Shown here: positions 2,083 to 30,200 of the stretch, one piece after another
How positions within the stretch are numbered: the first letter of the stretch is position 1
Layout: each line of letters starts with the position of its first letter
Assembly: GCA_040143965.1 (NCBI GenBank)
Contig: JASJQH010006957.1
Span: 1-32,569 of the forward strand
Source of the DNA: Basidiobolus ranarum
Lineage: Eukaryota
Direction of reading: 5' to 3'
Length of the DNA: 32,569 bases
The notes under the pieces: generated by a model
Told to the model about the DNA's origin: nothing
Database searches by the model: none
What the model saw: only the letters and a program-made list of their open reading frames with translations
Made by a program: the position numbers and the translations under genes

Positions 2083-2785
2083 TTTTCGTTGATAAGTAAA
2101 GGTTAAGTCAAAAGCATATATCATGAGCTTATACTTTTTATTAATCTTGGAATTGACGTAGGTAAGCTCCTTAATCCATACACCGATTAATGATTGATTT
2201 AACCGTTTGACTGAGTTTAGTACATGTATGCATTGAAACATCAGAATATGATAACAAAATGAAGTTGTAACTAATGTAACCATAATTAGTGGAGATAAGT
2301 CAAATGGTTTATGCTTACTTCATTAGCACATTGCTAGTATTTTATTTAGTATCTAACTCATTGAACAACAATAGATGCTCTCAATACTTTTTATTCCCGA
2401 AGACGTTCTGTATGATAACGCTAAGTCAAACAATATTTTGATCGTTGATTTTATCATTTGCTTATTTCCAATATATGCTTGTCAATCCAGAACCGTACTC
2501 TAATGCCAAACCCGACTACAATTTTCTTTGTCCATATCTCTGTTCTAGTCCTATGAAGGAAGAGTAAGGCGCCTTTCCCTCCTCTTAAATGGGATCTGCA
2601 ATGGATGTTATCAAGTTAATGATCGCCGCAATAATTTACAGCCAAACAAATTAATGGAATTTCAGTAGGAAAAATCATCGATAAATACAACTTGGAAAAA
2701 AAGGTAAACAAATAGATATATTCCATCAATATCATATTGAACAAATGCCACTTTAGACTTGTTTCATTATCACTTTCTTACATAC

Positions 2786-6292
<3,507 letters not shown>

Positions 6293-6839
6293 ACCTTTAA
6301 ATTAGTACATTATTGTATACGGATAATTTCCATTTTATAATCTTAACCAAATATACTTGTATAGTCCATTTCCTAATTTTTATGTATGATGTACCTTTTA
6401 GCATGCCAAATTGCGCTAGTACTGATTCGTGTACGTTCTTTGAAATAAATCAATCAAACTTCACAAAGCTGACTATAGTTCAACGCGCTGTTCTTGTGAT
6501 AATTGTTGATTGACATTACAGATGAATGCTCAAACATGATGACTGATTGGTTAAGACCAACAATTCAAATCAAGTCAAAACAAATGGATGGATGAGATTT
6601 GTTTTTGTTTATAGTTTAACAATCCACAGTCTCACAAACTCTGCGTCTGTTGATTCTTGAATTCTTTTATTTCGTGTTTTCTTCGGGCTTCACTTAACGT
6701 CCGAGTAGTTACTTGATAGCTCTTACAGTTCTAAATTACTCTAAAGTTATCGTACTTTCAAGTTGTTTATTCAACCCTTCACTCCTTTTACTTTTAACCT
6801 TTATTTTATCCAGCTTTTTCCTTTTTCGAAGTTTCGAAA

Positions 6840-8948
6840 ATGCCTTCTTCTCCACTTAGTACCCCAAGGAGGATGACCATTCATTCACCATTTAAAACCC
6901 CACATTCTCTGAAAAGAGGTTTTAATGATGATGCCTCCGAACGCGATTTACGCAGAAAATCGCTAATGGAATCCGTGAAACGACGCAGATCAGAGCTCTT
7001 TACTCCCAGAAGACGTATCTCCATGCTTGAAGGTTCCCCAAAGCAAACTCCCCGCAGAACACCTGGAACGCCAAATAGAAGATTGACCAACTTAGTGAGC
7101 AGCCCTTTGCCCGTAGCTCAGATGCTTTCAGCAGAGGAGATCAGTCATCGCTACGAAGAATGGATGAAAATCGCCGCTGATAATAAGATTAACACTAACA
7201 ATACCTGGGACTTTGCTCTTATTGATTTCTTCTACGATATGTCTCTGTTGAAAGAGGGCGAATCAGTGAATTTTCAAAAAGCCTCATGCACCCTTGACGG
7301 TTGTGTTAAAATTTACACATCTAGAGTTGACTCTGTAGCTTCAGAGACAGGTAAACTTCTGAATGGATTGGCTGAAAGTATCGATACCAAGTCTAGAGGA
7401 TCCTTCGATGATGAAGATGGAGGTAAAAGGGCAAAGAAGTCATCTAGAAGTGAGAATACCTTGGCAAAGGATTTCACTTCCTTAACTTTAAAGCAATTTG
7501 ATCTGGAGTTTTCGGTTGATCCGTTATTCAAAAAAACATCGGCTGATTTCGATGAAGGAGGTGCTCGCGGTCTTCTATTAAATCACCTTAGCATTCACAA
7601 TAATGGCAAAATCATCTTCGATGCCAGTGACGCCGCGCCATTTGAGAATGAAGATACTGAACCGGATGAAGAAGATTCTGATATCGACATAGGCAAATTG
7701 AAAGATAAATTCTTTGATAACTTTGATGACTTCTTGAGTCGTGACGTTTGCCCTTCTTTACAAAGCTTTGAATTGACTTCTGATACTTCTCCGGATATTG
7801 CTGCTCTCAAGAAAGTTATTGAAGACTTTACCGAAAATGAGTTCTACGATGACCAAAATGATGGCGATGATTATGATGATGATGATGACAACGATGATAA
7901 CAATACTCCATTCTTCGGTCATGACAACAATGACGATTTTGGACCAAACAACTTTGAAGATGGTGAAGATGATGTACGTACCACGGACCAAGCAAATCAG
8001 AACATGTTTAATGTGGATTTCGTACCCATGGCTAACGGTGGAGATGATGTATATTCTTACTTTGATTCTGCTTTCATGAAGAATTGGGCTGGTCCTGAGC
8101 ATTGGAAACTTCAACGTGCCCCGAAAGACAAGGTCGAGATTGCTGGAGAAAATCAAAAAAAGAAAACTGAAAAGCAGCAATTCCAGATTGACTTTATAAA
8201 CTCTGATGATATTGATGAAAAGAAATTGTTTGCCCCCACAAATAATACTACCTTAGCAAAGCCTTCCGAGAAGACAGCCGCCAAGACACTACTTCCAGAT
8301 GATATGCATTTCTCTTCAAAAAATCTACTTAGTCTATTTACGAAGCCTCAGGTCTCTATGATAACCAAGAAAAGACCAGCCTTTGATGATAATGGAGAGT
8401 ACGAAGGCGCCGTCTTTGGAGACGAGAATAACATGTTTGAAATCGGAAATAATAACGGAGCCGAAAGTCAAGCTGAAACTCAAGTTTCGTCTAATTTCTA
8501 TAACGATGCAGTTGATGACAATAATGATGACGACGATGACGACGACGGTTTACCTTTCCCCGATGTTTACGATGGCGTTGATTTTGGTGAACAATTGGTT
8601 GCTCAACCAAAGTTGATCAAACCAGAGTTCTTGAACTATGCCAAAACTGCCAAGAAGGTAGATGTGAAGAAACTCAAAGACAACATTTGGAAAGAACTAG
8701 TGGCAGACGAATCCAATGAAGCCTCAGACACAGAGGATCTGGAAGTACGAAAGGTAGAGGGAACGCAAAAGTTCACCGATGTCATTACCAACTTAAAGCA
8801 AGTTTATCCAGAAAAGAAGATGCAAGATATCTCTGTGTCTTTCTGCTTTATTTGCTTACTACATTTAGCAAATGAGAAAAACTTGGATATTTCAAACGAT
8901 GAAGCTTTGGGTGACTTGATTGTAAAGCAAAATGATGACTTGGCTTAG
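6840..8948 (+). CDS. BRN1: Condensin kleisin subunit (barren/Brn1/Cnd2/CAP-H), 702 aa, intronless
   Basis: Motifs NKINTNNTWDFALID, NFQKASCTLDGCVKIYTSRVDSV, DPLFKKTSADFDEGGARGLLLNHL, NWAGPEHWK and FICLLHLANEKNL. Confidence 0.96.
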   Translation: MPSSPLSTPRRMTIHSPFKTPHSLKRGFNDDASERDLRRKSLMESVKRRRSELFTPRRRISMLEGSPKQTPRRTPGTPNRRLTNLVSSPLPVAQMLSAEEISHRYEEWMKIAADNKINTNNTWDFALIDFFYDMSLLKEGESVNFQKASCTLDGCVKIYTSRVDSVASETGKLLNGLAESIDTKSRGSFDDEDGGKRAKKSSRSENTLAKDFTSLTLKQFDLEFSVDPLFKKTSADFDEGGARGLLLNHLSIHNNGKIIFDASDAAPFENEDTEPDEEDSDIDIGKLKDKFFDNFDDFLSRDVCPSLQSFELTSDTSPDIAALKKVIEDFTENEFYDDQNDGDDYDDDDDNDDNNTPFFGHDNNDDFGPNNFEDGEDDVRTTDQANQNMFNVDFVPMANGGDDVYSYFDSAFMKNWAGPEHWKLQRAPKDKVEIAGENQKKKTEKQQFQIDFINSDDIDEKKLFAPTNNTTLAKPSEKTAAKTLLPDDMHFSSKNLLSLFTKPQVSMITKKRPAFDDNGEYEGAVFGDENNMFEIGNNNGAESQAETQVSSNFYNDAVDDNNDDDDDDDGLPFPDVYDGVDFGEQLVAQPKLIKPEFLNYAKTAKKVDVKKLKDNIWKELVADESNEASDTEDLEVRKVEGTQKFTDVITNLKQVYPEKKMQDISVSFCFICLLHLANEKNLDISNDEALGDLIVKQNDDLA

Positions 8949-9479
8949 CGGTTGAGCTGACAATTCAATTAGATTTTATACCTTATCAAGTTTATTTCAT
9001 GTATCTTAGAAATTTTCGTCTAAATTTTGTGACTTCACTTTCCGTGTAATCTTTTGTTTACGGTTTAGTTTAACTTTCTGTTGTTCTAGGCATTTTGGAA
9101 ATGTACATTTCATTTAGTTTTTAAATAAATTATCAACACATTAAAACTAGAAATATGAGTAGTTGGTGCTTGCTATAATCATGAATACTAACTAAGAAAC
9201 ATACTAAGCCAGGATCTCTACTGATTTTCTCGAAACATCTAAACGTAGGGTCAATACTATTTGTTGTTGCTACCCTTGTTGTTTGTGTTCAGAAATTGAT
9301 CGTTTATTCTCTATTGGGATTGACTTCCAGAGTCTAAAATTCGTCGTCGTTACCTCCTCTCTAAGAAAGCTTTGGAAAAAGGTAAAAAAATGATATCACG
9401 TCATATAGGAATTTTCTCTAATATAACATAGTGTAAGGCATTATTTTAACGTTGTTTTATCCTATCCAGCCTATTAAAA

Positions 9480-9805
<326 letters not shown>

Positions 9806-10108: not shown

Positions 10109-10639
10109 TTAGTTTTTTTGATAAGACAATATGATGGCTTTAAATGTGTACCAAATAATTGACAATCCCTCTTATCACTAACCATTGTATTATAGATTAT
10201 ACACGCTTATATAGTCTTTGCAGAATTGTCAAGTGAAAGAATGTTTGCTTGCCCGTGTTAGTTTTTCACTAAAGGTATTGAGCTACTATGTTAACCCTAA
10301 TATGAAACTGATGGTATCAAATATGTAATAGAGTTTAATTTCTTGACAGTACAAATAAAACATTCTATGTAATATTAATCCTTAGACGCTTCCAAACATT
10401 TAAAGCAACAATCCAAATGCATAGAAGATTCTTAGGATGTGCAGAACCTGTAGCCAGCAACCCGAAAAATTTCTTAAAAGTATCTTGAAAGGTTAGAGAG
10501 TATTGGTTCTACTTCACCTCATAAAATCTTATGGCAGCCATATCAAAAGCATCGTGATAATGCTCACGGAGCAAGTTTCGAAGATTTATTCATGACAAAT
10601 TATTAATTTGCTAGAGTAAATATGCTAGGAAGATTTCAG

Positions 10640-10876
10640 TGTTGTTACCAGAAATAGGATAACAATGAAAATCCAAATTACGCACTAAAAGGAATGGTTC
10701 AGAGAACACACATTCTCAGAACTTGAATATCCTATATATATCAACGTATTAACATATGAATAAATTGAAGTTCTTAAGCTATTTATTTACAACTTATCTT
10801 TCGCTTCCAACATGCTTATTCCTCACACCCTCCGCACACGTAGGAATCCTGACTGCTATCTTATTGGTGAATAACA
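10640..10876 (+). mobile_element. Solo LTR-like element, family B (237 bp), immediately upstream of a tRNA gene
   Basis: Ends TGTTGTTACC...GGTGAATAACA with a perfect 5-bp TSD TTCAG (10635-10639 / 10877-10881). Internal TATA run near 10733 and AATAAA at 10759. Removing it restores the flank seen upstream of the tRNA at 12079. Confidence 0.8.
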
Positions 10877-10899
10877 TTCAGCTTTAATGAAAACAGTAA

Positions 10900-10972
10900 G
10901 GGGCGTTGGCCTAATGGATAAGGCATCAGACTTCGGATCTGGGGATTGTGGGTTCGAGTCCCATGCGCCTCG
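10900..10972 (+). tRNA. tRNA-Arg(TCG) copy 2
   Basis: Identical to copy 1; followed by TTTT. Confidence 0.97.
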
Positions 10973-11397
10973 TTTTGCTCTTCATTTCTGTTGGCAATAG
11001 AACTGGTTAGGATATGTGTAACATCCTGTCATTTTATTCAGTTCAGCGCGAAACGGTTCAATATAACCGCCGAGTAAGTACTTCAGAAGAGCACTAGTAG
11101 GAACAACATTGAGATGATATTCTTACATACAGATTTCTCGTGACACCAATGTCTAAAAAATTGTAGTATCGCTTATAGCGAAGTAAAATGATAGTTTTGG
11201 AAATATATACATAATATGGTTTTGTGTGAGTTTCTGTGTGCTTATTACTGGTATATTTGCACAGGTAAGATATCTGATACTTGGGCATTTACATTCGAGC
11301 TGCTGGAAGTAGATCTATTTATGTATTGATTGCTCTACCGTACTACACCAGATCCCGTTGACTTTTTCATCAGAAACTGAAGAGATAGCAGCAAAAA

Positions 11398-11470
11398 CGA
11401 GGCGCATGGGACTCGAACCCACAATCCCCAGATCCGAAGTCTGATGCCTTATCCATTAGGCCAACGCCCC
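11398..11470 (-). tRNA. tRNA-Arg(TCG) copy 3
   Basis: Reverse complement identical to copy 1; T5 terminator. Confidence 0.97.
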
Positions 11471-12078
11471 TTACTTGTGATAATAACCTCTGGATGTTGG
11501 TACCACTAATATTCCTTCACTGATATTTATTTGTTTTCCTTGCAAGCGCTATATCAGCTATACATATTTTTAAAACTCGATCACTTCACCATCACAAGTG
11601 TAGCCTTATAGAAGTCTTTTATTCACTAACTAGGTGAAAGGGTAATCAATAACCTGAGTATAGATCTCACTTCACATTTAGATACCTCCACATATTGGTT
11701 TCTCAACAACCAAAAATTCCACTGCTAGGCGATCAACAAAAGGATTCAATTATTAATATCAAGTATGTAAAAGAGTTTAAATTCTTGGCAACACCAATAA
11801 AACAGTCTCTGCAATGTTCATTGTTAGAGCCTTTTAGTTATATGAATTGCTACTTCAAATGCATAGGATGTTCTTGAGAAGTGCAGGACACGTAATCAGC
11901 AACTTGAAGAATACGTTAAAAGAATCTTCAAGAATAGGGAGTATTGGTGCTAATTCACCAGATAAAATTCAAATGGTAGTCATGAAGATCATATGGATAA
12001 TGCTATAAATGATAAGATATTGGGTAACTTCTCGGAACAAATATGGTAGGATGTTTCTGGCAGTTAAGAAAACAGCAA

Positions 12079-12151
12079 GGGGCGTTGGCCTAATGGATAA
12101 GGCATCAGACTTCGGATCTGGGGATTGTGGGTTCGAGTCCCATGCGTCTCG
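12079..12151 (+). tRNA. tRNA-Arg(TCG) copy 4 (C69T variant)
   Basis: One difference from copy 1 at 12147 (GCGTCTC), giving G4:U69; T5 terminator. Confidence 0.96.
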
Positions 12152-12380
12152 TTTTTGTTTCTGTTCTTTGTACAAAAGACAACACATGCTTATAAGTAGT
12201 AAATTCTGAAGTGGTTACATGATGCAAAATTAAGTTGCCCACTGTAGAGTTTTGTAAAATCGTAAGAAATTCGTTTCGTTGGATTCACAGCAACCGTCAA
12301 TTACTAGGCTATACCATTTCTTTCAATAGACATTATCGCCTTGTTTATTACAACAAAAATGATGACATGAGGTCCAAAAG

Positions 12381-12453
12381 CGAGGCGCATGGGACTCGAA
12401 CCCACAATCCCCAGATCCGAAGTCTGATGCCTTATCCATTAGGCCAACGCCCC
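12381..12453 (-). tRNA. tRNA-Arg(TCG) copy 5
   Basis: Reverse complement identical to copy 1; followed by CTTTT. Confidence 0.97.
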
Positions 12454-12655
12454 TTGCTGTGATTCTTGATTCCTGCATTTTACTACCATATTTTCTTCAG
12501 CGAGATACGCAATAATTTGTCATAATTTGAGTTCTCAAAACGTGCTCCGTAAGAATTATCAATATGCTTGTATCATGACTACCGCTTTGATTGAATTACG
12601 TGGAATAGTACCAGTGTTCATGTCATGAATATCTAACTCACCACATACTAAGTAT

Positions 12656-12684
12656 TATATGTATATGTATATATATATATATAT
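12656..12684. repeat. (TA)n microsatellite
   Basis: tatatgtatatgtatatatatatatatat. Confidence 0.85.
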
Positions 12685-13250
12685 TTGTTATTACCTCAAA
12701 TGATTGGATAGCTTTAACAACTAATATTACCGCTCCTCTTTTGTCAGTATTGACAAGAATTGGTTCACCTTAACATACTGGGTATGAATAATTTTATCCT
12801 TGAGTTAGTATCCTAGCGGAATACTGTTCGAGGTTAACAAAATATGATCATTGAAAGTGGCCTATATGCGGAGTTAGTACAATATCCTGTTCAATGAGCA
12901 CACTTTTTTTTCTGAATTATTGAATAAATGTCTTATCAATACTATACTAAATGTTCCAAATTCATGTCATGTGAAGCAACATAGTGTGAATAGTTGTTAA
13001 GTACACCTACACCTTATATTCCGCAACTTGCAAGGGTGGTTATTGTAAAAACATCTACTTCTTAACCTACCATTTCAGATGGCTAATCGCAAACATTTAT
13101 GTAACAGTTACACTTAGAATAGTCGTTTTTAAGTATTATACTAACTAGTAATATATTGTGAATAAATATACTGTATAGCACATAGCTGATTCCTTTGTTA
13201 TGCTCTGTTTGCAAATGTAAGTATGATTATACCTCATAGATATTACCCCC

Positions 13251-13601
13251 TGTTAGAGTATTTTGGGTGTTTGTTGAAGTGGTTTGGAGAACTAGAAGAA
13301 TTGGTGGTTCTCACTTATTGATTTATTGAGTAGAAAGTTGACATTTATAGTTTTGTCAAGAGGTAAACAAATAAACGTGTAGAATGTGTCAAGGAAGGTC
13401 CCAGGAACATGTGTGCAAAGTTTAGGGCCTCTAGAACAAGTTTAAAGAATATATACTTCTGAGAGCTTCTAAGTAAATTCCGATTGAAAATAGTGGGTGA
13501 TATCTTAGTGAAATATGGAATAACTAAATACTTAGCTATATATGACTCTATATATATTTAGGCTATATTATATAGATGTTTAGGCTATGCCAATTTCAAC
13601 A
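13251..13601 (-). mobile_element. Solo LTR, family A (copy A2)
   Basis: TGTTAG...TTTCAACA on the + strand, homologous to 543-872 inverted. Shares one flank (CTTAC...) with A1; the other flank (CCCCC) differs, so there is no TSD. Confidence 0.85.
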
Positions 13602-13674
13602 CTTACAACACCAAAGAAGGCAACTACAAAGTCTCTTTGGTGATTCAAGCCATAATATTTGTCAAGTTTCTTTA

Positions 13675-14022
13675 TGTTAAAGTATTTGGGAGCCTGTTGG
13701 AAGTGGTTTGGAGAATTACAGGAATTGGTGGTTTTCACTTATTTATTTATTGAATAGAAAGTTGACATTTATAGTTTTGTCAAGAGGTAAACAGATAAAC
13801 GTGTAGAATGTGTTAAGGAAGGTCCCAGGAACAAGTGTGCAAAGTTTGGGGCTTCTAGCACAAGTTTGAAAAATCTATTTGTCTGAGAACTTCTAAGTTG
13901 GTAAAAATATTCTAAGTAAATTCCTTATGAGAATAATGGATAATATCTTAGTGAATTATAAGAGAACTAAGTACTAAGCTATATATGACTATATAGGTGT
14001 TTAGGCAAAGCTAACTTCAACA
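13675..14022 (-). mobile_element. Solo LTR, family A (copy A3, 348 bp)
   Basis: TGTTAA...TTCAACA with a perfect TSD CTTTA (13670-13674 / 14023-14027). The empty site is preserved in the left arm (470-474, TAAAG). Confidence 0.92.
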
Positions 14023-14198
14023 CTTTATACTGCTGAACACCTTGAGTACTCCAATTTGGGCATCCTTTCGTATTTTACAATTACCTTCATAATACTCTGG
14101 TGAGTGCGATACAAAAGTTTGGTAATTTGATGGTCATTAAAATACATGCCCAATTCTAATATCTAGAGTACTCAAAACTAAAGTAAGGTTGACCAAAA

Positions 14199-14271
14199 CG
14201 AGGCGCATGGGACTCGAACCCACAATCCCCAGATCCGAAGTCTGATGCCTTATCCATTAGGCCAACGCCCC
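14199..14271 (-). tRNA. tRNA-Arg(TCG) copy 6
   Basis: Reverse complement identical to copy 1; shares its 3' flank with copy 1. Confidence 0.97.
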
Positions 14272-14611
14272 TTTCTTCCGAATTTCGTACTCTGGATCAT
14301 CCTATTTTAATTAATGTAAGAACAAGAACTCAATATCCTGACAACTCAATTGACTTCAAGTGGAATATTTTTCTGTTCACAGTATACTGTTTATTGAATT
14401 AAATTATACATACAAATAAATAGAAGAAATGTACGTTTAACAGATGTAAGAAAAAAGATCATGCCATCTACCCAATTACTATCATTGATAGAATAGTTTC
14501 TCTATGAATATATGTATAGGTTACTTGGAATAAAAAATCTTGACTAAAGAACTACGCTATCGAATGAAATATTCATGGGAATTCTTGTACACCAACGGTT
14601 ATATTATTCCC

Positions 14612-15196
14612 TTATTTCTTGTGCTGGCTTCTTTGTCTCATCTCCTTCTTTCTAATACGTTGAAGTTTCTTGGCGGAGACCTGTTACGATAGCAATTATT
14701 GTATGAAAAAGTCAGTGTTCTGTTACCAGTAAAAGCTGCATATTACTGATTTTAATGCCGCGATGTAAATAAATAAATAGCTTACCAAAGCTTGTAATTT
14801 TTCAAGTCTTTCCTTTTCTTCTTGAGCCTTCTTACGCTCTAAAGCTCTATTTTTCGATTCCTAGTAAGAAAAAGACAGAGTTAGAACATAATTAAACACA
14901 AAATATAAATAAGTTTACGCAGAATTATGAATACTCTGCCAAACGATGTAAACATGAATAAATACCTCTTTGATTCTGAGTTTCTCGTCTTTTAATTCCT
15001 TTTCGATCGCTCTAATAGCTTGAATTCTGTTGCGTTCGCGTGTACGTGCTGCCCAGTCCTGGCTTACACCCGCTGGTAAATGGGTACGTCTGTAAGCTGT
15101 TTTGGGTTGCTTCCATATTTTTCCAGATACTCTAGTAGCAGGAGCATTGATGGGCTTTTTTTCGGTTTGTGTGGTGGCTGTTGTAGTATCAGACAT
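14612..15196 (-). CDS. CGR1: rRNA-processing protein Cgr1 family (3 exons)
   Basis: RVSGKIWK motif, basic coiled coil, and VSAKKLQRIRKKE. Exons 15196-14966, 14860-14786, 14680-14612. Confidence 0.88.
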
Positions 15197-15540
15197 ATTT
15201 CTTGAGATATATATTAAAGTAACGGAGGTGCTTTCGGTATTCTTGACTTCTTATTACACTGAATTTGTGTAAGAAATTGTATTCTTGAAGGAAAAAAAAA
15301 AAGAAAATTTCCATTTGTAATTTCCCATTTAATCTGGAATCATCAAGCTTCAATTATATCCATGATGTATTCTAGAATAAAGGAAACTTCCCAAGGATAG
15401 GTGGGATGAATTTCTATTTGTTTATGTTCAATTTCGAATCAATACTTCATTGTTTAGTAAGTGATTTTGATATAACACCATTTGGTTTCTGATATTCAAT
15501 ATTTTATCTTGGTTTTTTCGCTCCTTTAATATCACTCACG

Positions 15541-17031
15541 ATGATGAATGGAGAACGTGTTGACTTGTCGGTTACTCCTAATGAACAGTTGACTGATCCT
15601 CCCCTTGACGCGCTTCGTTATTTTAACCGATGTCGCTTGAAGTCCGCCTTTGACTCCATCTTTCAAAAATATGGAAGAGATTTTGAAGAGAGTGACGTGG
15701 TTGATATAAGTACTGGTGAGGTGATAGAAGATAAAGGATTTTTAAAGAAAACACCCCAAAGAAAACTTGGTTCCTTGTTCAAACCAAAAGAAGAAAAGAC
15801 TCCGTTCACGAAGAATATGTTTCATTTACTAGAACCAGGAAATTCTACTAGTACAGAAGAAGAAACTTTACAAGAAACTCCTAATAAAACTCCCTTAGTG
15901 AAAGAGGTTTATGACGAAGAAGACTTTGAGAGTATATTGGTTCAGGAAAAATCTCACTTATCGCGCAATTTCCCTCCTTTCTATTCCCCTTCAACAATGG
16001 GGTTTAATCCTTCCCCATTTTTACCTTCTAATTTGAATCCGTTATTTAATACTCCTACTAGAAAAGCGATCCCTTTCAATAACACGCGTTCAATTATTTC
16101 ACCCAACTCGAATGACTTGCCTGTAGATTCTCCCGCAACAAACGCCTCACCACATAGAACTGAATTAGTTAACTCCCATACTATTCATAACCCACTGAAA
16201 TCGCCACCAACCAACACTCAATTGGAACTCAAAGAATCACCTCAATCACCCGCCAGTAACACTCTCGAGCCAGTACAAGATTTCATCACATCTCCATTAT
16301 CACCCACACCCACTGTGATACGACCAACAGCTACCTTAAATGTTGCTCCTCACGTTTCCACCGTCATTCCCACCTCCACCTCCACGACCAAGAAAAGAAA
16401 ATGGGAAGATTCAGCGGATAATGAAAAAATTGTGTCGAATTATGAATCCATGGATTTATTCGAAGTTGCACCCCAAGATAGAGACTTTGAAGTAGTAGTA
16501 TTAATAGAATCAAAGTCCCAGCAATTCCTCTCTTCTTTTACAAGTGAAAATCAGGAACCGGTCACCTTCACTTCTACTGATGATTTATCACCCAAAAGCT
16601 ACGTCTCTTCCATGGTCTCAGAACTTGTTAATATTAGACGAGCCGCTTCTAGAGCTAATACACCCACATTCAAAGAACACTTGGAGAAATACGAAGCCAA
16701 TGTTGAAGAGAGTCAAGATGATGATTCACACTCCATTGTATATGAGTATCTTGAAACTTCTAGAAATTTCATGGATAGCGATTCAATTGATTTCTCCAAA
16801 AAAGAAAGTCTGGAGATTTCTTCCAGCAGAGAAGATAACCAAAAATCCATTTCTTATCAAGTCCAGTTATTAGAAACTTCTCACACTATACAGACTCAAG
16901 AAATGGAACTAGTAGACCATTCCTTTACAAAACCAACTCTAGTAACGGAAACTAACGGTTGTAAAGGTTATGGAAAATGTACTAAAGCCTTTTGCTTTGA
17001 CTGCGCTTTCGTAGAAACTGAGATAGATTAA
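15541..17031 (+). CDS. SCM3: CENP-A chaperone Scm3/HJURP-like protein (496 aa)
   Basis: N-terminal RLKSAFDSIFQKYGRDFEESDVVDISTGEVIEDKG matches the Scm3 domain. S/T/P-rich disordered middle and a C-terminal CKGYGKCTKAFCFDC motif. Confidence 0.85.
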   Translation: MMNGERVDLSVTPNEQLTDPPLDALRYFNRCRLKSAFDSIFQKYGRDFEESDVVDISTGEVIEDKGFLKKTPQRKLGSLFKPKEEKTPFTKNMFHLLEPGNSTSTEEETLQETPNKTPLVKEVYDEEDFESILVQEKSHLSRNFPPFYSPSTMGFNPSPFLPSNLNPLFNTPTRKAIPFNNTRSIISPNSNDLPVDSPATNASPHRTELVNSHTIHNPLKSPPTNTQLELKESPQSPASNTLEPVQDFITSPLSPTPTVIRPTATLNVAPHVSTVIPTSTSTTKKRKWEDSADNEKIVSNYESMDLFEVAPQDRDFEVVVLIESKSQQFLSSFTSENQEPVTFTSTDDLSPKSYVSSMVSELVNIRRAASRANTPTFKEHLEKYEANVEESQDDDSHSIVYEYLETSRNFMDSDSIDFSKKESLEISSSREDNQKSISYQVQLLETSHTIQTQEMELVDHSFTKPTLVTETNGCKGYGKCTKAFCFDCAFVETEID

Positions 17032-17574
17032 CTCTATCGTAAATGATACTCTTTGTTTATTTTCGCGGTTCACTCAACCTTGTTTAATTAATATATATTC
17101 GTGTAAATAATCTTTCATATATCCTAGAGTTGGTTGGTCTTTTACTTTTAGTTGGGATATATCGTTTTCTTTTACCTCAAAATAACATACGTGATGGTAG
17201 TAGCTGACCTGAACAATAATGCGAACTTCTTTTGATTTGTAAATCTTATTTGTATGTCATGATTTCAAAATATAAATATTTCCTTCGAATTCATGGCTTT
17301 TTATGAATTATGCTAGAAGTCGATAGATTTTCAGGAAATTGGATATTATTTCTATAACCTGGTAATAGAAAATTTTTACTCTTTCAATGATCTACTTGGA
17401 ATCAAATCGATGTTTAGATGGGGGGTGGGGAAAGACGAGTAAATAAATTTTTATGAATGGAAAATTGAATTCACTCTTTACAAGCTAAAATAAGACCAGG
17501 AAATTGGTTAGTTTGTGAGTTAGTAAAAGAGAGAGTGAGAGTTACCTTAACATAATAATAAGAAGACTTTGATA

Positions 17575-18441
17575 ATGTCTCTAAAGAAAGCCCCCACTGA
17601 CGTCCATAAGACTGTTTCCCGTTTGTTGAAAGGGAGACTTATTAGAGATGAGCCTGCTTGGTTATCAGCGGTTAGAAGAATTCCCCCTGGTCCAAGTATC
17701 GTACGTTCTGTCTCGAAGTTCGATACCACCGGGGCCTTGCCTTTCGAAAAAGAGAAACAACCTGGAGTTAAACCAGTTAAAAGAGTAAGAAGATGGATGA
17801 AATATAAGACAGTTAAACCACCCAAGATTGAGTACCCTGAAGATAAATTGAGACGTCAATTTTACAAGGATCACCCACAAGAACTTTTACGTCCTCGCAT
17901 GTTGATGGAAACTGATGGGGAAAACCGTTCCGACTGGAGCAAGTTAACCACCGAAGACGGAAAGAAACCACATGAGGTTAATGGTGAAAGGTAAAATGAA
18001 AATCTCTTATTATGAGTTTTAGCATAATGATAACCTCTTTTAATTCTATACTTTACCTTCTAGTGTAATCCAATATCAACTTCACTTGATGTCACAGGGT
18101 TATACTACTCGTGAGGCTTACGTTTTCGCCACTTCCGAGTTCTATAAAATCAAGTCTCGTGAGGATACCGAACTTATGATTGCCAAACAACAAGCACAAC
18201 ACTTTGGTGCAGATTTGGCTAAGAGCTCCACTAGATGGGCTATCGAGAAGGAAGATGAAGCATTAGCAGAAACCGAAGGACTTTACGCCAAGAGAAAAGA
18301 AATGTAAGTGTCGATTTACAACTAAAGCCTTCGTTATACACACAGATTCTAACGTTAATTGAAATTTTTCTTTTTCAATTATCTAGGCGTCAAATGCAAC
18401 ATATGGCCGAACAAGCATTCACATCCAATACAGAACAATAA
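17575..18441 (+). CDS. RSM25: Mitochondrial ribosomal protein Rsm25/mS23 (3 exons)
   Basis: PAWLSAVRRIPP, IEYPEDKLRRQFYKDHPQELLRPRML and NGESVIQYQLHLM. Exons 17575-17990, 18064-18303, 18387-18441. Confidence 0.88.
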
Positions 18442-18976
18442 TCATTTTGCATTCCCTCATTTTTTTCTTTCCCTTCTATGACAATAGAAAGAAATATCTA
18501 CAATACAAATTCATCATTAGAGGATTGTACACTGTTGAAGAGAAGGTTCTTTTTCTGTTTGAATACTCAATCATTCATTCCTATATAATTTTTTTCATAA
18601 AGATTTCTCGTTCGTTTGCGATTTTTCGATTACTATTACCTGTTCGTATGAAATTAGTGAACAATCAATATTTCTTCACAAGAAGTTCAACAAAGGCTTC
18701 ATTAGGCAATGGGGATACATTTAATATGGCGTATATATGTATATACTAGGTTAAAGCAAAACAAGTTGTAGTTCGGATGGTGAAAGCTAATTAAGGAGAA
18801 GACGTGGTGGTAATGTTGTCAATTATTAGGAGATCAGAATGAATTCTATGGAAGGGTGTTTTTAGCCCTAACCCTAAATACAATGAGGATTGTTACCTCT
18901 ATACAGAATGTGTTTGTGTTTATGGATTCTCATTAGTATTGATGAGAATTGAACCAACCTAGTTGCTAAGAGGGGT

Positions 18977-20699
18977 TTAGGTTCTCTTAACCATGATGGT
19001 GAGAGTGGCTTCATCAGGAACACAGTCGAGGAAATCCTCACGAATATGTAATGGCATATCTAAAAGTCCGCTGGTTTTCATGACAGCACCATAGTTTTCA
19101 AATATATACTCAACTGCTAGGATTTTGAGTCCCTCTTCCTGAGATAAAACTGCTTGTTGAAATATGTAGGCGCAGGTTTCTACTCGAAGATGGTTGTGGT
19201 ATAGAAGGTTGGCGCAGATCTTTTTCAATCTATGGACCATGTACATCTCTGCCAAAACCAATACGTCGGCCGTAATATTCCAAGGGGTATCTATATCGAA
19301 TGAGTCCTGGTAAATATATCGCAAAAACGTATACATTACGGAATGGGACTCTTCCACTTTCATGCTACCCCCGGTAATCTCGGACATATTGCTTTGTAGT
19401 AAGCTTCTGAAATGCGGCCATCTGGCTACTAATATCACTTTATGAACATATATAGAGCGGCCTTCCTCCGTGATGATTTGAAAATCACTGAGTTCTTTAT
19501 CATCTAGCAAATATGCGAAATCCGAGTTTAACGTGGATGGTGGAATGGTCCATATGCCAAATGATTCTAAATTCAAAGTCAACAGATCTCGAAAGTGGTC
19601 GTACGGTGTTGGTCGAACCTTTTCAGTGTTCCCGAGGAGTAGTAGGTTCACGTGATCTTTGGATTCGTCTTCCATCACCGTAAAGTAATTCCAAACTCCG
19701 TTAGACAAAGCTGGTTTGCAATCTAATTTACTCCATCTCAATGTGATCAGATCTAAAGCCCATAATCCGTATGCCGACTGGGGTACTGTCTCGCATATGT
19801 ACTTTCCAAATACCAATAACCGATCACCGACCGCTTCAGTGAAATGTTGCGATTTGAGAAGCTCTATTTTGCCGGTGACGCCAAAGTACGGATTAACTCT
19901 AAGACTTCTCAGATCTAGCGAGAATAAGTCATCTACTGTAGAGCCAGATTCATCTTTACCTGCGTAAATGAAAATCCGATTGTCGACTAGAGTAGCTGAA
20001 TGGTTATATCTTGGTGGAACTGAAATCGGCTCGGCCCAAGTAAAGGTTATGAGATCGAGAACACTAAGCTCATCTAATACATAAGTGCCTATTTCCAGCT
20101 TTGAATTAGTACAGAGTTTTCAATATTACTAATAATAATATCATCATCATTACAATCTGAATTTCGTGCAAATCCTCCGTACACATATAGCTTGTCTTTA
20201 TATACGGTTGCAGTGTGAAGGTATCTAGCTGCAACTTTCGATCCGCTAACACGAGGATGAGTCCATGCTTTCTTTTCGATGTCATACAATATCAAATCGT
20301 TGCAATACTCTTGAAACTCGTTTGAACCGCCTGCAGCAACAAAAGTCAGTCAAAACCGGTAGATTGCCCAGTGAATTCAAAGTAGAGACATACCAAATAT
20401 CACGATAGTATTCCCGTACAGAGATGATGTATGGCCATAACGCTTTGAAGGGGGTTTTCCTTTGACATCCTAAATTAAAGTTGAATTAGCCAGATGAAAC
20501 TTGTTGAGGCTTTCGAAGTATTGCTAACTTTGTGTGTGGTCCAAACCAAAGTTTCCAAGTCAAGTGAATGTAATTCATTGGTAACTACACCGCCACCCCC
20601 AAATACATATATCTTCTTTTTAATTCGGGTAAAAGTAGGTCGCCATAGACCAACTAGGTTGTGTCCAGTCGTATTACGAGAGTTGGAAACTTTGAGCAT
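18977..20699 (-). CDS. Kelch-repeat plus BTB/POZ protein (LZTR1-like architecture, 4 exons)
   Basis: Kelch motifs (IYVFGG, RYGHT...VIFGG, RYLHTA...YVYGG, RYNHSA) followed by BTB SDFQIITEEGRSIYVHKVILVARWPHF. Exons 20699-20529, 20469-20394, 20330-20154, 20088-18977. Confidence 0.88.
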
Positions 20700-21413
20700 T
20701 GAACAAGATTACTTTCAACCACTCCACTTTAAGGTATATATACTCTGATTAAATGGAAGTCTAGCGCGGGAGAGGAGGGAATCTTGAGTTTAGAAGGTAT
20801 CTCCAGTGATATACAAGTTATTCAAGAGTTTCTTTTGAATTAATTGAATGTCAAAGGACTGTGAATATTGAATAAACCGGTCCAAATAATACTTGGAGTT
20901 CTCAACGAATTTGTTAGTAATTAGTTCTAGTTATAGTACGAGAGTGCGGAAGACTTTAACTAATTCAAGTTTATCATAAAGTTATTTTTAAAATGCAAGG
21001 GATGCTTCAGCGATTCATTTAATTAATGCAAGACCAGATGACCGATTAACCCTACTGGACTAATATTAGCAGGAGTTTTCAATTGCTGAGTATGCCCATA
21101 TTGGCGGGAATTTGTCAGGATCACGTGACAAACCGGTTTAGCCAACAGAAGCCTCTCTTATTGGATTAAAAATCAAGTGTTCTTGCACAAATATACTCAC
21201 ACTTGCTAGCTAAGCTTATGCTAAACCTTGATCAGGGAGGGGGGGAATTTTAGTGGATGTGGCTACTACCTAATTGAGATGTGACTCGTATTTTCACTAA
21301 CATCTAAGATAAAATTCGGCAATTGTTGATTATCAAAAAAATTGATGAGATGTTAATCAACCTGAATTGGTTTTATAAGGGATGAGCACGATTCTTGCGT
21401 CTCAAGTACAGTA

Positions 21414-21994
21414 ATGTCCAACAGCACCACCCAAAGACTTCAGAACTTGGCCTCTCATCTTAAGGTATATTCCCACTTTTTACTTTACTTTCTCAAATTC
21501 TAATTTATTGTTGTGTAGCCTGCCATGCGTACTAGAAGCCCTATTACCGCTCACGTCCTCGACTCTTCCGTAGGTAAACCTGCACAAGAAGTGAAGTTGA
21601 CCATTGAGAAGTTGGAGAACATTCACTGGCAGGTTATTGGAGAAGCGTAAGTTGAGGGATAACCCTATCACTTTGAATGCCAATACCAACCTTATTGTTT
21701 TCATAGACTTACCAACACCGACGGACGTTGCCCTGAGCTCTTGGCCTTGGACTACGACTTGAAGGCCGGAATTTACCAAGTCACCTTCAACACTGGAGAC
21801 TATTACAAAAAGCAAGGAGTGCCTTGTTTCTACCCTTATGTCAAGGTAGCGTATTTACCAGCAAGGTCATTTGATTATGTACTAACAATATCGAACATTC
21901 ATAGATCACTTTCGAGATTACTAGCCCTGAAGAGCATTATCACATCCCCCTTCTTCTGAGCCCTTACTCGTACTCTACCTACAGAGGCAGTTAA
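21414..21994 (+). CDS. 5-hydroxyisourate hydrolase (transthyretin-like, 4 exons)
   Basis: SPITAHVLD, TNTDGRC, FYPYV and the HYHIPLLLSPYSYSTYRGS terminal signature. Exons 21414-21464, 21519-21646, 21707-21845, 21905-21994. Confidence 0.95.
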
Positions 21995-22133
21995 ATTCCT
22001 AGTCATGACATTGATATCAGCATTCATTCAATTTTCAAATCCATCCACCGTTTTAATAAGATATTTCAACTGGAAAGAAATAAAGCATGAACCAAAATAT
22101 ATTACAAATCTCTTTACATTGCATCACCTCACA

Positions 22134-25049
22134 TCACATCACTATGCAATCCTCGATCTCGACTTTCTTGGCAATCTTTTTGTAGTCAGCGCGTAGGGCG
22201 ACAAATTCATACACGTCTTCGATTCGAAGAACCCCTTGATATCGTCGTGCATCATGCAAAAGCTCTCGCAGATGGTCAGGTGACACGATATATATGTGAC
22301 CCAACTCCTTCAACGCTGTGAAGTAACTGATCGCTTCTGGCTGTCCTCTTAGAGAGGAGGATGCCCAGTCATGGTATTGATTGAGATCGCTAAGGAAAGA
22401 AGGTTGAGACACTTCATTTGATTGTTTGGTGTTGGATGCGATGTTTACCTGATCAACTGGAATCCACCCGCTTCATTAATGGTAAATCTCTTGATATGTT
22501 TTCCAAGAAGACCGAAAAACCGATACCCAATTTCGGCCAGAAATACATCAAGTGTTTGTTTGTCAATACCACCTACCACCAACTTCGTGTGAGTGGCAAG
22601 ACATCCTACTGCCTCTACACAAGCCTAGCATTTCCGTTAGTTATTCGGGACTAATAAATGGGAATGGTGAAGATAACTCACTTGCGTGGGCTTCAGGTCC
22701 GGATTTACTTTCTCACTAGGAAGGAACTCGGTTGGAACTTGTTTAGATCTCAATATGAATTCTGTTTGTTGCATCAGAGCCTTACGTAAAGAATAAAGTT
22801 GCATGAGAATCCATTGGAACACTCACCAAGAGTCGTACTAACACTAACCTCAATACTTTTGTCTAGACCGGCTGCCACACAATCATCTAATACCCTCTCG
22901 AATTGACGCTTCTCGTTCACCGCCTCGGAAAGGAAATCGTTGGGATCTACGAATTGACAAACCTCTTGCTTATAGTATACATCTACCATTTGTAGTATCA
23001 GGTCCCCGATGTGAACCAATTCGAAAAACTCCAAGATGGGCGCTACTGATTCGGTGGCAGAGTCAAAATCTGCCTTGTACGCACCAAGACGCTCAGTAGC
23101 TATGCTATAACCAGGCTCAATATTGCCCACGCAAAGTTTCTTCAATAATAGTATAAATATCCGCTCGATGCAATTGTATGTTAGCTTCTTCACCGGAGAG
23201 TCGTCCGGTGCTCCAGCAAAGCAAGCACATCTGTGTAATGCTTCTTTGTTGAAGTTTATCATGTGAAGAGCCATTTCAATAGATAAAAGAAGTTGCAGAT
23301 CATTCAATTGGAATGTCGCATTCTCTTCGTAGTTTGATGATTCCCCCTTATCAAGATTGAGTACTTCCAATTGATGTGAACGCCCTTTCTTCGCTCGAGT
23401 ATTGCCACTTTCGGTAGATAAAGATTTCGTGGTTTTCTTTAACCAATTTTTTTTGAAGATCGCTACATTGACTCCTTCGAACATGGATTTTTTCTTGGGT
23501 GCTTCACTTTCATCAACAATTCGGAGTTCATCCAACTAAATTGCTCAGTTAGTTGCAGAGTTCACGTATACATATATACATAGCATAAGTCAACCTTTTT
23601 GCTCCACAGCTTGATCCAAGTATCATATTGAGATTCCAGTTCTTTTGCCTCTCTAGTTACATAATCTTCGATAAATGGCTCAAATAAAGTAAATAAATAA
23701 GCTTTCCGCTGAGCGGGATTCGGTGTACTCTTCACGATATCCTCCGATAATACAGTGCAATGGTAAAATGAACTCATTAAGGCTCTGAAATAGGTTTTAG
23801 CGTCGATTTCAAAAGCCATATCTATTAACTCCGCAATGTAGGGCCGCATCTACAAAGGATGTTTGAGTGGTACATTTCAATAATCAATCACCTTGACTAA
23901 CTTACTATCTCTTGAAACACCCGCTCCAACAACTTATCAAACACACACGACTCTTCGGGAAATACCTGCTGAATTAGAGAATATTCTCGAGTCATAGCCT
24001 GAAATAAGTAACTGGCAAGCTCCTCCAAAGGTTGGAATGTAATAGAAGCCATCGCTTGAGTTTGATCAAGATCTTCATAGAAACTATAGAGAAAAAGAGG
24101 AAATGAGCAAATGGTCGACTAATCTTGGATCATGAGTAAGCATACTTCTGTCGAGGCTTGAAGTGATTCTCATAGAACAGCTCAGACTTGTGAATGAATA
24201 TATGAAAGCACGAATATCCGCCAGTTAGATTGATCAATACTTGTGCCAGTTTCTTGAGAATTAGTAAGATAAATGAGTGTAAGTGCTTGAATGGTGGAAA
24301 TGTTACATGACTCCTCTACCTTCATCTCATCCACATCCTCCTCATCATAAGCTGCTTCAAACTGATTCAACATAGAACTCTCAAATCCATAATATACAGC
24401 TTCCAGTGTCAGCTTTATCTAACATATAATCCGCTTTGTTCAATATTCACATCAACAGATAGGTGAGTGTTGGTAAAAGATAAGATACCTTACTAGTGTC
24501 TTTCACTGGTTGTATTTCAGAGAATCGTTTCAAACGAGCAATCAGTGTACCAATCTCTGCCAAGTCTCGAGTACTATTAAATGCAAGGAAATCTCTACTT
24601 CCAGTCTTACGAAAATCGATATAAAAAGGGATCAGTTCATTGTATTGCTTTATAAACTCCTCTCTTGCTGACGGTAGAAAGTTTTTATCTGCATTACAAC
24701 GTGCTGGTAAGCTTTCATTAGCAGCATCGGGCTCAGTCAAGGGATCTTTATTGGAAGGGGGGCTCCATTCCACGCCCATTAGACGTAATTTTCTTAAGTA
24801 TATCTCTTCCTCATAAAATAAACTACTTAATCGGATACTAGTGCGTGAAATGGAAAATAAATCGAAAATCGGTAGGTAGTCCAGTATCTCAAGTAGAATT
24901 CTACTAGGTAAATTTTCAATACCAGGCTTTTCTCCAGTGGTATTTTTCTTAGAATTACCCGATGTTCTCTCAGTTCCAAAAGAAAAAGGTTTGAACGAAG
25001 TGAATATATTCACACTATTTCGAAAAGACTGTCTTTTTTGTGAAGGCAT
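22134..25049 (-). CDS. RCY1: F-box / Sec10-like recyclin (Rcy1/Pof6 family), multi-exon
   Basis: N-terminal F-box (LPSRILLEILDYLP), FFELVHIGDLILQMVDVYY, KRQFERVLDDCVAAGL, and terminal EDVYEFVALRADY...EDCIVM. ORF pieces are joined by GT-AG introns; not all junctions were mapped. Confidence 0.87.
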
Positions 25050-25673
25050 GGTTAGAAACGTAAAAACCTAACTCAGTATTTCTCAAATTATTCAAGAATA
25101 TCTCTCTTCGTTTTCCTTCCTGCTCTTCTCTAAAGGTTATTGGAGAGAGAGTAAATCAACTCCTTACGTTTGATATTCAACTTCTGGTGCTCTTGCTTCA
25201 GGAGTATTTCACTGAATGGTTTATACTAAAATACTTCGGATTAATTTATTAGCCGATTTACCAATCATCTTCGGTTAAATAGCTGATGTTTTAATCCAAA
25301 TTGTTTAGACCTAGAGTTAAATAGAGGAAACTTAATGGCGAAAAACTGCATCCAAAATAATGAGAAGTCCTAACTTGAAAAAGTCTCTGGCCACGGACAA
25401 TGAGGGCTTAGGGCTATACATACATGAGGTAGAGAGTCTCAATGATCCCGAGAAATCGAAAAAATAGCTTTACATCAGAAACATTCCAATTGATTTATCG
25501 TAAATTCCACATTTTTATTGAATGTCATATGTAATGTTTTAGTTGAGTGAATGCATGTGAATAGTTAACAAAGAGCATAAAAATGAAAGTTAAAACGAGT
25601 CTCTAGGTGTAAAATTCTCTTTTGAAATTGACAAAGACTTGAGAGAAAGGCGTAAGTGAGTGGAAAAAGTGGC

Positions 25674-26135
25674 TTATTTCTTTTTCTTGTTACCACCGTG
25701 TCTTCTAGCTTTGTCAGCAACAAGGGTTTCTTCATGAGTAGCTAAACGAGAGAATGTAGTACCGGTTGTACCTTCAGGAAGGTCAAAGAAGTCCAAGTCG
25801 GCAAGATCATCAAGTTCACCGAACTTCTTGGAGAATTTGGAGATTTTACCACTGTCGTCATCAAGAGTAGTTTGGATTTGTGGATTCCAAAGGGGATGAC
25901 TTCTGGTATCCTTGGATAAAGTGATTTGAGCACGGGGAGAGGTTGTACGCAACTTAAAGGTGGCACCATTGGTCAACACAACAGTTTGGTAAAAGCGTTC
26001 AGGATCGGGATATTTTCTGGTGTTATCGCTAGTAGCGTATCCTCTAATATAGCATCCTAAAGTACTTTGAGGAAGTACATTTTGAACTAGTCTGTTACGA
26101 GTAGTATTCAGCGGAAATTTACTTAACAACGACAT
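25674..26135 (-). CDS. MRPL36: Mitochondrial ribosomal protein bL31m (Mrpl36-like), 153 aa
   Basis: Arg/Ser-rich presequence, then FYQTVVLTNGATFKLRTTSPR...KDTRSHPLWNP...KFSKKFG. Confidence 0.85.
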   Translation of the reverse strand: MSLLSKFPLNTTRNRLVQNVLPQSTLGCYIRGYATSDNTRKYPDPERFYQTVVLTNGATFKLRTTSPRAQITLSKDTRSHPLWNPQIQTTLDDDSGKISKFSKKFGELDDLADLDFFDLPEGTTGTTFSRLATHEETLVADKARRHGGNKKKK

Positions 26136-26563
26136 GGTGTGGTAAGTCTTCAAACGAACCAGGACTCCTTTGAGAAAGTAGTAATTTACAAAAAGTTTTT
26201 CGCGATTCGATCCAATTCAAGCAGCATTCTTTGATCGCAGAGAAATTTTCAATTCATCCAAAATCTCATCAAAACATCCACTTCATAGAAATGAACATCA
26301 AATTGGGGTATTAGATGAGGTGGAAGATAAACAGCATGTTAAATCTTTTAATTAATATTTAAATCATTATTGCTTTTAAATCGAAATCAAACTGGAGTTT
26401 TACTGAGATTGTTAAATACCCCACACCCAACAGAAATCTATGTGGAGCGCCGGGGTATTTTTGGGGTGAGTAAGAAGTCATTGGGTACAAGGAATTTCAC
26501 ATTCAAGAAAGGCACAATAAGCCATTTTCTAATATCCCCCTTCCGGTTGGTCTTTTGGACAAA

Positions 26564-27564
26564 ATGAACACCAGACTTTTGGCTTCTCTCAGACCTTTGG
26601 CTCGTAGAGCAATTGGAACTCAACTAACACAAGGTACATTCAGACATGTCAATTCACTTTTATGCATAATCCATTCGTCACTTTTGATGATCCCCATTTT
26701 CAAGACTCTACGAATTAACTAAATTCAACCTCATTACCTTTTTAGGTGCACAAGTTACCCGTAGCGTTCTTCCTAGAGCTTCTGGTTTCCACTCTATCTC
26801 CTTCGTTCAAGAAGGTTTGATTTCCCAACTACACTTGACTCCAGCTATTCAACTAACCAACCCTCTTTCCCTTTCCCCTCAACCGAATTCAATCATATTC
26901 AGAAGAAAAGAAAGTTACTAATCCTGTCGATCCTAACTTCAAGTCCGATAATGCTGCCGTTCACGAATACGGAAAATATTTGATGAGCGTACTTCCCAAG
27001 TATATTCAACAATTTTCCGTATACAAAGATGAGCTTACCGTACACGTTGCACCTAGCGGTGTTTTACAAGTACTTGAGTTCCTTAGAGATCACGACTCTG
27101 CACAATTCAAGTCTCTTGCTGACCTTTGCGGTGCTGACTACCCAGGACGTAATAACCGTTTCGAAGTAGTTTACAACTTATTAAGCTTGCGTTATAATTC
27201 TCGTATCAGAGTGAAGACTTACTGCGATGAAGCTACACCAATTCCTTCGGCTGTCGGTCTTTTCAATGGCGCCAATTGGTTCGAAAGAGAGGCATGGGAT
27301 ATGTACGGTATTTACTTCACCGGTCATCCTGATCTCCGTCGTATCTTGACCGATTACGGTTTCGAAGGACATCCATTGAGAAAGGATTTCCCATTAACTG
27401 GATACGTTGAGGTTAGATATGATGAAGAGCGTAAGAGAGTTATTGCTGAGCCATTAGAGATGACTCAAGCACATCGTAACTTCGACTACAGCTCTGCTTG
27501 GGAACAAACCGGACCTGGACGTGATGATATGCCCAAGCAAATTGAAACCCCCAAGAAAGAATAA
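26564..27564 (+). CDS. NDUFS3: NADH:ubiquinone oxidoreductase 30 kDa subunit (3 exons)
   Basis: [10 protein letters not shown] and [13 protein letters not shown]...[27 protein letters not shown]. Exons 26564-26633, 26746-26814, 26903-27564, with a presequence. Confidence 0.96.
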
Positions 27565-27957
27565 AGGAGATTTTCTCATTTTCAAATAGTTGAGACATTC
27601 AAAGAATCTTAACCATACGCTACTTTCATTAGCCTCAGGATCCACCTAAAATCCCTTTTTTAATTCTTTGAAACAATTCATTTGCAACCACCTAACTGAC
27701 ATACGCCATCTTCAATGGATTCACTTTTCATACATGACGAGATATTTCCCTTTCGTAACACTTATCCCCCCACCTTTCAAATAAATCATTTCTGAACGTG
27801 TTTATTGATCTCGAAAGAATACTCAAAAATCCATTAATTCTATACTGTTTGTATTGTTCGTTGAAAGTATATGGAAGAACGGTTTCATCAAAAATAATTT
27901 ACTAAAGGTGGGTAGTAATTGCACATATTTGCTGCGTACAGAGAAAATATTCCATTT

Positions 27958-29348: not shown

Positions 29349-30119
29349 TATTTTGGCAGTTTTTGTTTAGTTGGTTCGAGAGGGGTAGGTGTGAATAAAG
29401 AGGGATGACGAGTGCAGAAAAGAATAAAAGGAAAAGGTAAATATCAAGCGAAGGGAACCACAACTTTTCCGTTTCAGGTATGTGTCTAACTAGTCAACGT
29501 AGCCTGGTTAAACTCTTCTCGAAGAAGCGTCTGATAGGAGAAGGGTAAGAGAGTGGTTCAACTGTTGAATTCGACCGCAGGACAATTAGATATTAAATAT
29601 TTGTGTAACTTTACAAGGGACTAACCAATTAAATAGCGTTCACCGAGTTTACTTGAAGTAAGATTAGCCTCAGTTTCTCAATAATGCAACCAACCAAAAT
29701 GGATTTCAAGTCACTACAAAACAATCCTCCTGTAACTTGCTTTAAGTAGTTATTGTGGGGTGTAAAGAGAAAGGTGTTGTACCAATTGTCTGAAATGACA
29801 ACACAGCGAGGATAACGTATGATTTAATCAGCTTACATTGCGGTATCGTGTAAATCTTGACTATAGTCTACACTTGAACTAGAACGGGGTAGGCATCAAC
29901 CCTTAGCACGCATTGGGGGTCAAAACAATGGCAACAATGATGATCAAATCCACTCGCGCCTCTAAAAGTCAATTTCGAAATTAAATTGTATGAGCCTATA
30001 ATGGACTTGAGATTTTCTTGATATGTATCGGAGTACTTACATTTTCGAACAAGAATGAAATCAGGATCATAACTAGAAATATCACGTGATTTCCCTCCAA
30101 CTTACTGTCCGATTTCTGA

Positions 30120-30200
30120 CATTATGGAATACCTCTGCATTATAGAATACTTTCGCATAATGGAATATTAATAGCATAATGGAATGGGGTTCATAATGCA
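30120..30200. repeat. Degenerate ~18-bp minisatellite, core CATWATGGAAT, about 5 units
   Basis: cattatggaatacctctg / cattatagaatactttcg / cataatggaatattaatag / cataatggaatggggtt / cataatgca. Confidence 0.75.

Follow-up and report, generated by a model that had tools for sequence, protein, structure and literature searches.

Did a mobile element in an early-diverging fungus select a tRNA gene as its landing site? Retrotransposons that target genes transcribed by RNA polymerase III (Pol III) are the classic illustration of integration into a safe haven, and the cases collected in Table 1 of PMC5911963 all come from ascomycete yeasts and social amoebae. The question is raised by a contig from Basidiobolus in which a 237-bp segment lies immediately upstream of one of several tRNA-Arg(TCG) genes, and for which an initial annotation had suggested that a position-specific, gypsy-type element might exist in this host. 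That suggestion is partly supported. The finding is one well-defined, LTR-like (long terminal repeat) and integrase-type insertion in the upstream zone of a Pol III gene, which is a good lead towards possible targeting.

The tRNA-Arg(TCG) cluster and its surroundings

The window analysed here is the whole contig, which is 32,569 bp long and without N. Its source had been described as an early-diverging fungus, and rightly so: the Cnd2 (condensin) open reading frame (ORF) at 6798-8948 is 84% identical to that of Basidiobolus meristosporus CBS 931.73, the next matches reaching at most 49%, so that the host is another species of this genus or a near relative, and Basidiobolus is a zoopagomycete or entomophthoralean-grade fungus. 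Gene-dense housekeeping DNA lies around the tRNA cluster (2741-9722 and 14918-32173), and the neighbouring genes encode a Rad50/SMC-like ATPase, Cnd2, a dynein light chain, Cgr1, Scm3, MRP-S25, a Kelch-BTB protein, a transthyretin-like protein, Sec10, an F-box protein, L31 (bL31), the 30-kDa subunit of complex I and a GDSL lipase. Reverse transcriptase, integrase and transposase domains were absent from a Pfam scan of 48 of the 66 stop-to-stop ORFs of at least 70 aa, the 18 unscanned ORFs being ones that overlap longer-reading frames among the long ORFs. This domain scan of 48 of the 66 ORFs revealed no further mobile-element insertion in the window.

Six tRNA-Arg(TCG) genes were identified in the contig by ARAGORN and Rfam. 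Copies 1 (8-80), 2 (10900-10972; Rfam score 57 bits) and 4 (12079-12151) are on the forward strand, and copies 3 (11398-11470), 5 (12380-12453) and 6 (14199-14271) are on the reverse strand. Copies 1, 2, 3, 5 and 6 are identical and copy 4 carries one substitution. The upstream flank of copy 1 is unreadable because the contig starts 7 bp upstream of the gene. The genes are arranged in part as inverted pairs, with paralogous upstream flanks of 250-380 bp that share 60-79% identity. All of the readable flanks have kept a block, ATATGGTAGGA-N-YCAG, at roughly -45 to -19 relative to the gene, which could be an upstream Pol III promoter element.

Other repeats are found in the same region. Positions 1-861 and 13261-14276, which contain tRNA copies 1 and 6, form a large inverted duplication (89-99% identity), and it was probably at this repeat that the assembly broke. 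A unit of about 330 bp is present in tandem (13251-13563 and 13675-14006; 82-88% identity, some 424-443 bp apart) and again, inverted, at 540-861; its coding signal is limited to a sub-threshold match to DUF5504. In addition, a (TA)n / (TATG)n microsatellite occupies 12655-12686, in the upstream flank of tRNA copy 5.

A true insertion upstream of tRNA copy 2

The segment of interest (10640-10876, tabulated without strand) begins with TGTTGTTACCAG and ends with TGGTGAATAACA, so that its termini read TGTTGTT...AATAACA. It is bordered on the forward strand by two copies of TTCAG, the left at 10635-10639, placed by direct reading of the sequence and by alignment of the paralogues, and the right at 10877-10881, which corresponds to -23 to -19 relative to the 5' end of the mature tRNA. 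The two copies agree at all five of their positions and are taken as a target site duplication (TSD). To the left lies the ancestral upstream flank of the copy 2 unit (10315-10634, forward strand), which ends with the paralogue-conserved block AATATGCTAGGAAGATT(TCAG). To the right, a spacer of 18 bp, CTTTAATGAAAACAGTAA, runs from 10882 to 10899 on the forward strand and leads directly into the tRNA gene, the end of the element thus being 23 bp upstream of it. The spacer probably holds the putative Pol III start site, and its ACAG(T/C)AA motif is common to tRNA copies 1, 2, 4 and 5. On re-reading the sequence, every coordinate and count initially given for this site proved correct, including the 237-bp TG...CA element, its perfect TTCAG repeat, the 18-bp spacer and the distance of 23 bp.

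Whether these features mark a true insertion can be judged from the paralogous units, and the earlier claim that the excised copy 2 flank matches the uninterrupted flank of copy 4 was borne out by both MAFFT alignment and self-BLAST. When copies 2, 4 and 5 are aligned with MAFFT, about 250 bp of upstream flank together with the tRNA align with a single gap of some 242 columns, and this gap covers exactly the element plus one TTCAG; once these are removed, nothing is left unaligned against copy 4. In the self-BLAST comparison, 11757-12004 matches 10315-10564 with 72% identity, and 12477-12841 matches the reverse strand of 10634-10258 with 60% identity. The alignment places the unoccupied paralogous sites at 12040-12078 on the forward strand for copy 4 and at 12454-12495 on the reverse strand for copy 5, and at copies 3 and 6 the proximal part of the same flank is present and likewise uninterrupted. 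At the same offset as TTCAG, copies 4, 5, 3 and 6 carry the counterparts GGCAG, TGCAG or TCCAG. Since the paralogous flanks of copies 4 and 5 align straight across the site with one gap, the segment at 10640-10876 is a true insertion. Moreover, because the flanks of copies 3, 4, 5 and 6 are all uninterrupted, the sequence comparison shows the tRNA-Arg(TCG) units to have been duplicated before the insertion entered copy 2.

The repeat and terminal signature is not by itself unique. A scan for 5-bp direct repeats flanking TG/CA ends near the six tRNAs, at distances of up to 8 kb, returned six pairs, of which 10640-10876 is the only one shorter than 1 kb. It is the coincidence of this signature with the borders defined independently by alignment that makes the insertion call secure. 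The chance of finding a 5-bp repeat and TGTT...AACA ends at just those borders was estimated as about 1e-3 x 1.5e-5 (roughly 1e-8), making a fortuitous origin very unlikely. This estimate weighs heavily on the suggestion that the segment is a non-mobile, one-off insertion, such as filler DNA from double-strand break repair or a fragment of something larger, with a TSD-like repeat by accident. The element does occur as a single copy in the sequence examined, namely the window and the collections scanned for exact 24-mers, as a one-off event would predict. However, the perfect repeat and the TGTT...AACA ends fall exactly at the alignment borders, and excision of the element with one TTCAG restores the copy 4 arrangement without remainder, so that an accident of this sort is highly improbable.

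The insertion left both the tRNA copy 2 gene and its terminator, a TTTT run at 10973-10976 on the forward strand, intact. It lies at the gene-proximal edge of the conserved ATATGGTAGGA-N-YCAG block, and the upstream flank, with this block, has been displaced 242 bp from the gene.

A resemblance to the 5' end of the element is also found upstream of copy 3, where TGTTGGTACCA at 11495, 24 bp from the tRNA, matches the element terminus at 10 of 11 positions, and where a possible far end, ...ATTGGTTTCTCAACA (...CAACA), lies 214 bp off at 11708. A second insertion here was considered and rejected. The putative borders lack a TSD (CTGGA versus ACCAA), and within about 600 bp no other far end is flanked by a match to CTGGA at four or more of the five positions. 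The internal alignment to the element does not exceed that of shuffled sequences (local p 0.63 and 0.28; global p 0.07), and 12-mer matches with up to two mismatches number 6 against 2.8 expected, a count reached by 8 of 100 shuffles. The deciding evidence is that this stretch corresponds, in reverse complement, to the shared upstream block ATATGGTAGGA...YCAG, and self-BLAST pairs 12335-12506 with 11352-11526 at 79% identity. By this sequence comparison, 11495-11708 is ancestral tRNA flank and not an insertion.

The nature of the element

The termini and TSD of the insertion suggest that it is probably the solo LTR of an LTR retrotransposon, of either the Ty3/gypsy or the Ty1/copia superfamily. 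The short inverted repeats that bound LTRs have the consensus TGTTRNR...YNYAACA (PMC3601003), which the ends TGTTGTT and AATAACA fit at six of seven positions each, and the 5-bp TSD is within the 4-6-bp range for LTRs. Within the element, TATATATA at 10733-10740 is followed 26 nt further on, in the same orientation, by AATAAA at 10759-10764. TATA and AATAAA have been named as typical internal motifs of LTRs (PMC3601003); in DNA as AT-rich as this (GC 0.34) they are weak support for an LTR, and their order suggests that the element is on the forward strand. The superfamily cannot be read from the LTR alone because the LTRs of Ty1/copia elements also start with TGTTG (PMC3601003).

Several other identities were discarded. 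Stops occur in all six frames of the element (237 = 3 x 79), which holds an ORF of 43 aa, and a coding exon is ruled out by these stops. The element gave no Rfam match above the gathering score, which disposes of a SINE, a ribozyme or a snoRNA; the best sub-threshold match overlapping it scored 19.7 bits against a cut-off of 50.

A BLASTN search of the element within the 32,569-bp window returned only the match to itself, the next best being 15 nt with an E value of 0.021. Of 10 tests comparing the element with other parts of the tRNA cluster, two gave a nominal p of about 0.04, which is not meaningful. Exact matches to the 24-mers of both element ends were absent from metagenome contigs, and to the 5'-end 24-mer from viral and prokaryote-genome contigs, all of these being collections with little or no fungal DNA. 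As exact 24-mer scans miss diverged copies and the collections are nearly devoid of fungal DNA, these zero counts are uninformative as to copy number in the host.

An alternative identity is that of a miniature, non-autonomous cut-and-paste DNA transposon (MITE) mobilised by an integrase-like transposase, for which Ginger2/TDD is the most relevant group. Both termini satisfy the TGTNR motif (TGTTG at the 5' end and TGTTA as the reverse complement of the 3' end), 5-bp TSDs are made by TDD-4 and TDD-5, and a non-autonomous Ginger2 element of 252 bp, Ginger2-1N1_NV, exists (PMC2836005). Ginger-type rve transposases are, furthermore, reported to be widespread in fungi (PMC5751038, Table 1). The initial annotation had itself allowed for a MITE, on the grounds of an imperfect inverted repeat of about 20 bp, but this repeat turns out to be weak. 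Only about 11 terminal nucleotides match in inverted orientation, with one mismatch and one gap, and although the match can be extended to about 25 nt by admitting gaps, the longer extension is no better than chance (p ~0.06-0.07). Aligned locally, the two 45-nt ends attain a best score of 15, which was reached by 7.2% of 5000 random 237-bp segments of the window and by 5.5% of 5000 shuffles. Nor does the predicted fold contain a hairpin: folded as single-stranded DNA, the element has a z score of -0.05 relative to shuffles and its termini are unpaired. The terminal inverted repeats reported for Ginger elements are 45-297 bp long, against about 11 nt here, and Ginger2 favours RTATAY as its target, which TTCAG does not match (PMC2836005). 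The short inverted repeat and the missing hairpin thus disfavour a MITE, which we consider an unlikely identity for the insertion, and a solo LTR, which we consider a likely one, fits better.

On entering copy 2, the segment duplicated its 5-bp target, TTCAG, which occupies -23 to -19 relative to the 5' end of the mature tRNA. If the insertion is indeed a solo LTR, a DDE integrase would have joined the two ends of a cDNA across a 5-bp staggered cut. Recombination between the two LTRs may later have removed the internal gag-pol region, leaving one LTR between intact copies of the TSD. The end of this probable LTR now supplies the sequence upstream of -24 of tRNA copy 2.

Was the site chosen?

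From the position of the insertion it is quite possible that the site was picked by an integrase tethered to the Pol III initiation complex (TFIIIB/TFIIIC) of the tRNA gene, in the manner of Ty3, Tj1 and DGLT-A, and this step is proposed with lower confidence than those above. The TSD is at -23 to -19, and if transcription starts near the conserved CA at -6/-5, then the insertion would be some 14-18 bp upstream of the start, in contrast to those of Ty3 and Tj1. Positions that are 13-33 bp upstream of a tRNA make up 0.32% of the window and 1.9% of the 5.4-kb tRNA cluster, as computed over the five tRNAs with a readable flank, and random insertion would therefore seldom land there. One copy (n = 1) cannot show that an element aims at tRNA genes, and although five tRNAs in the window have a readable upstream flank, one flank is occupied and four are empty. 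We accordingly entertain only tentatively the possibility of a Basidiobolus LTR family that integrates at a fixed distance, about 20-25 bp upstream of tRNA genes, by way of the Pol III pre-initiation complex.

The same arrangement could have arisen if the solo LTR belonged to an ordinary, non-targeting retrotransposon and owed its proximity to the tRNA to chance and selection, an explanation that is somewhat doubtful but deserves serious consideration. No other non-coding stretch of the window is as long as the tRNA cluster (about 10.0-15.4 kb), and in so gene-dense a region insertions might survive only in this intergenic cluster; DNA flanking tRNAs may, more generally, tolerate insertions where genes are dense. 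Basidiobolus genomes have been described as rich in transposable elements (PMC5751038), so that some tRNA-adjacent cases are to be expected by chance in each genome. The element is a single copy beside four unoccupied flanks out of five, it is 8-18 bp farther from the gene than the sites used by Ty3 or Tj1, and the prior for targeting is low because the cases listed in Table 1 of PMC5911963 are confined to Ascomycota yeasts and dictyostelids. Against this, an insertion placed at random would fall 13-33 bp upstream of a tRNA in only about 0.3% of cases across the window and about 2% within the cluster, and elsewhere in the window no transposon protein domain was found among the 48 of 66 ORFs scanned. 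In favour of targeting, the distance of 23 bp is within the ranges published for DGLT-A and beta/Tca8 (PMC5911963, Table 1).

In the portion of the literature covered, no report was found of elements that target tRNA genes in Basidiobolus or in other early-diverging fungi. Should integration of this LTR prove to be directed to tRNA genes, no earlier example from hosts other than ascomycete yeasts and dictyostelids would be on record in that literature (PMC5911963, PMC5006619), and the implication would be that tRNA targeting either arose once more independently or is old in fungi. It would also provide an independent lineage in which to ask whether tethering to TFIIIB has evolved repeatedly, and whether the distance of integration tracks the local architecture of tRNA promoters.

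Relation to known tRNA-associated elements

The Ty3 LTR (sigma) of S. cerevisiae and Tj1 of S. japonicus resemble the element described here in their TG...CA ends, TGTTG-type start and 5-bp TSD, and in inserting upstream of a tRNA gene within the zone of TFIIIB. The sigma LTR starts with TGTTGTAT. Ty3 integrates at a distance of 1-4 bp from where Pol III starts, approximately 15 bp from the mature end of the tRNA (PMC5006619), and Tj1 has an LTR of 244 bp and a 5-bp TSD and inserts 5-11 bp from the mature tRNA end (PMC4600332). The dimensions of Tj1 are thus similar to the 237 bp and 5 bp of the Basidiobolus element. Both Ty3 and Tj1 nevertheless use sites nearer the gene, the TSD here being at -23 to -19.

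Solo LTRs of Ty1/copia elements (delta) also share with this insertion a TGTTG start and an association with tRNA genes, and the TSD of Ty1 is 5 bp. The Ty1 LTR starts with TGTTGGAATA (PMC3601003), but Ty1, unlike an element at a single position, is scattered across roughly 1 kb of DNA upstream of tRNA genes (PMC5911963). Outside the retrotransposons, Ginger2/TDD elements are comparable in having TGTNR termini, a TSD of 4-5 bp and a size of around 250 bp, and they differ in their long terminal inverted repeats (45-297 bp) and their AT-rich RTATAY target (PMC2836005).

In position, the insertion can be set beside DGLT-A, a Ty3/gypsy element of Dictyostelium, and the beta LTR/Tca8 of Candida albicans. 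The hosts of both belong to different phyla from Basidiobolus, and both families are defined by many copies together with pol, whereas here there is one copy without pol. Upstream of the mature tRNA, DGLT-A is found at a distance of 13-33 bp and the Candida beta/Tca8 LTR at 6-30 bp (PMC5911963, Table 1; PMC5006619), and the 23 bp of the Basidiobolus element is within both ranges. Many of the genomic copies of DGLT-A and beta/Tca8 are, furthermore, LTR only, as the element upstream of tRNA copy 2 probably is.
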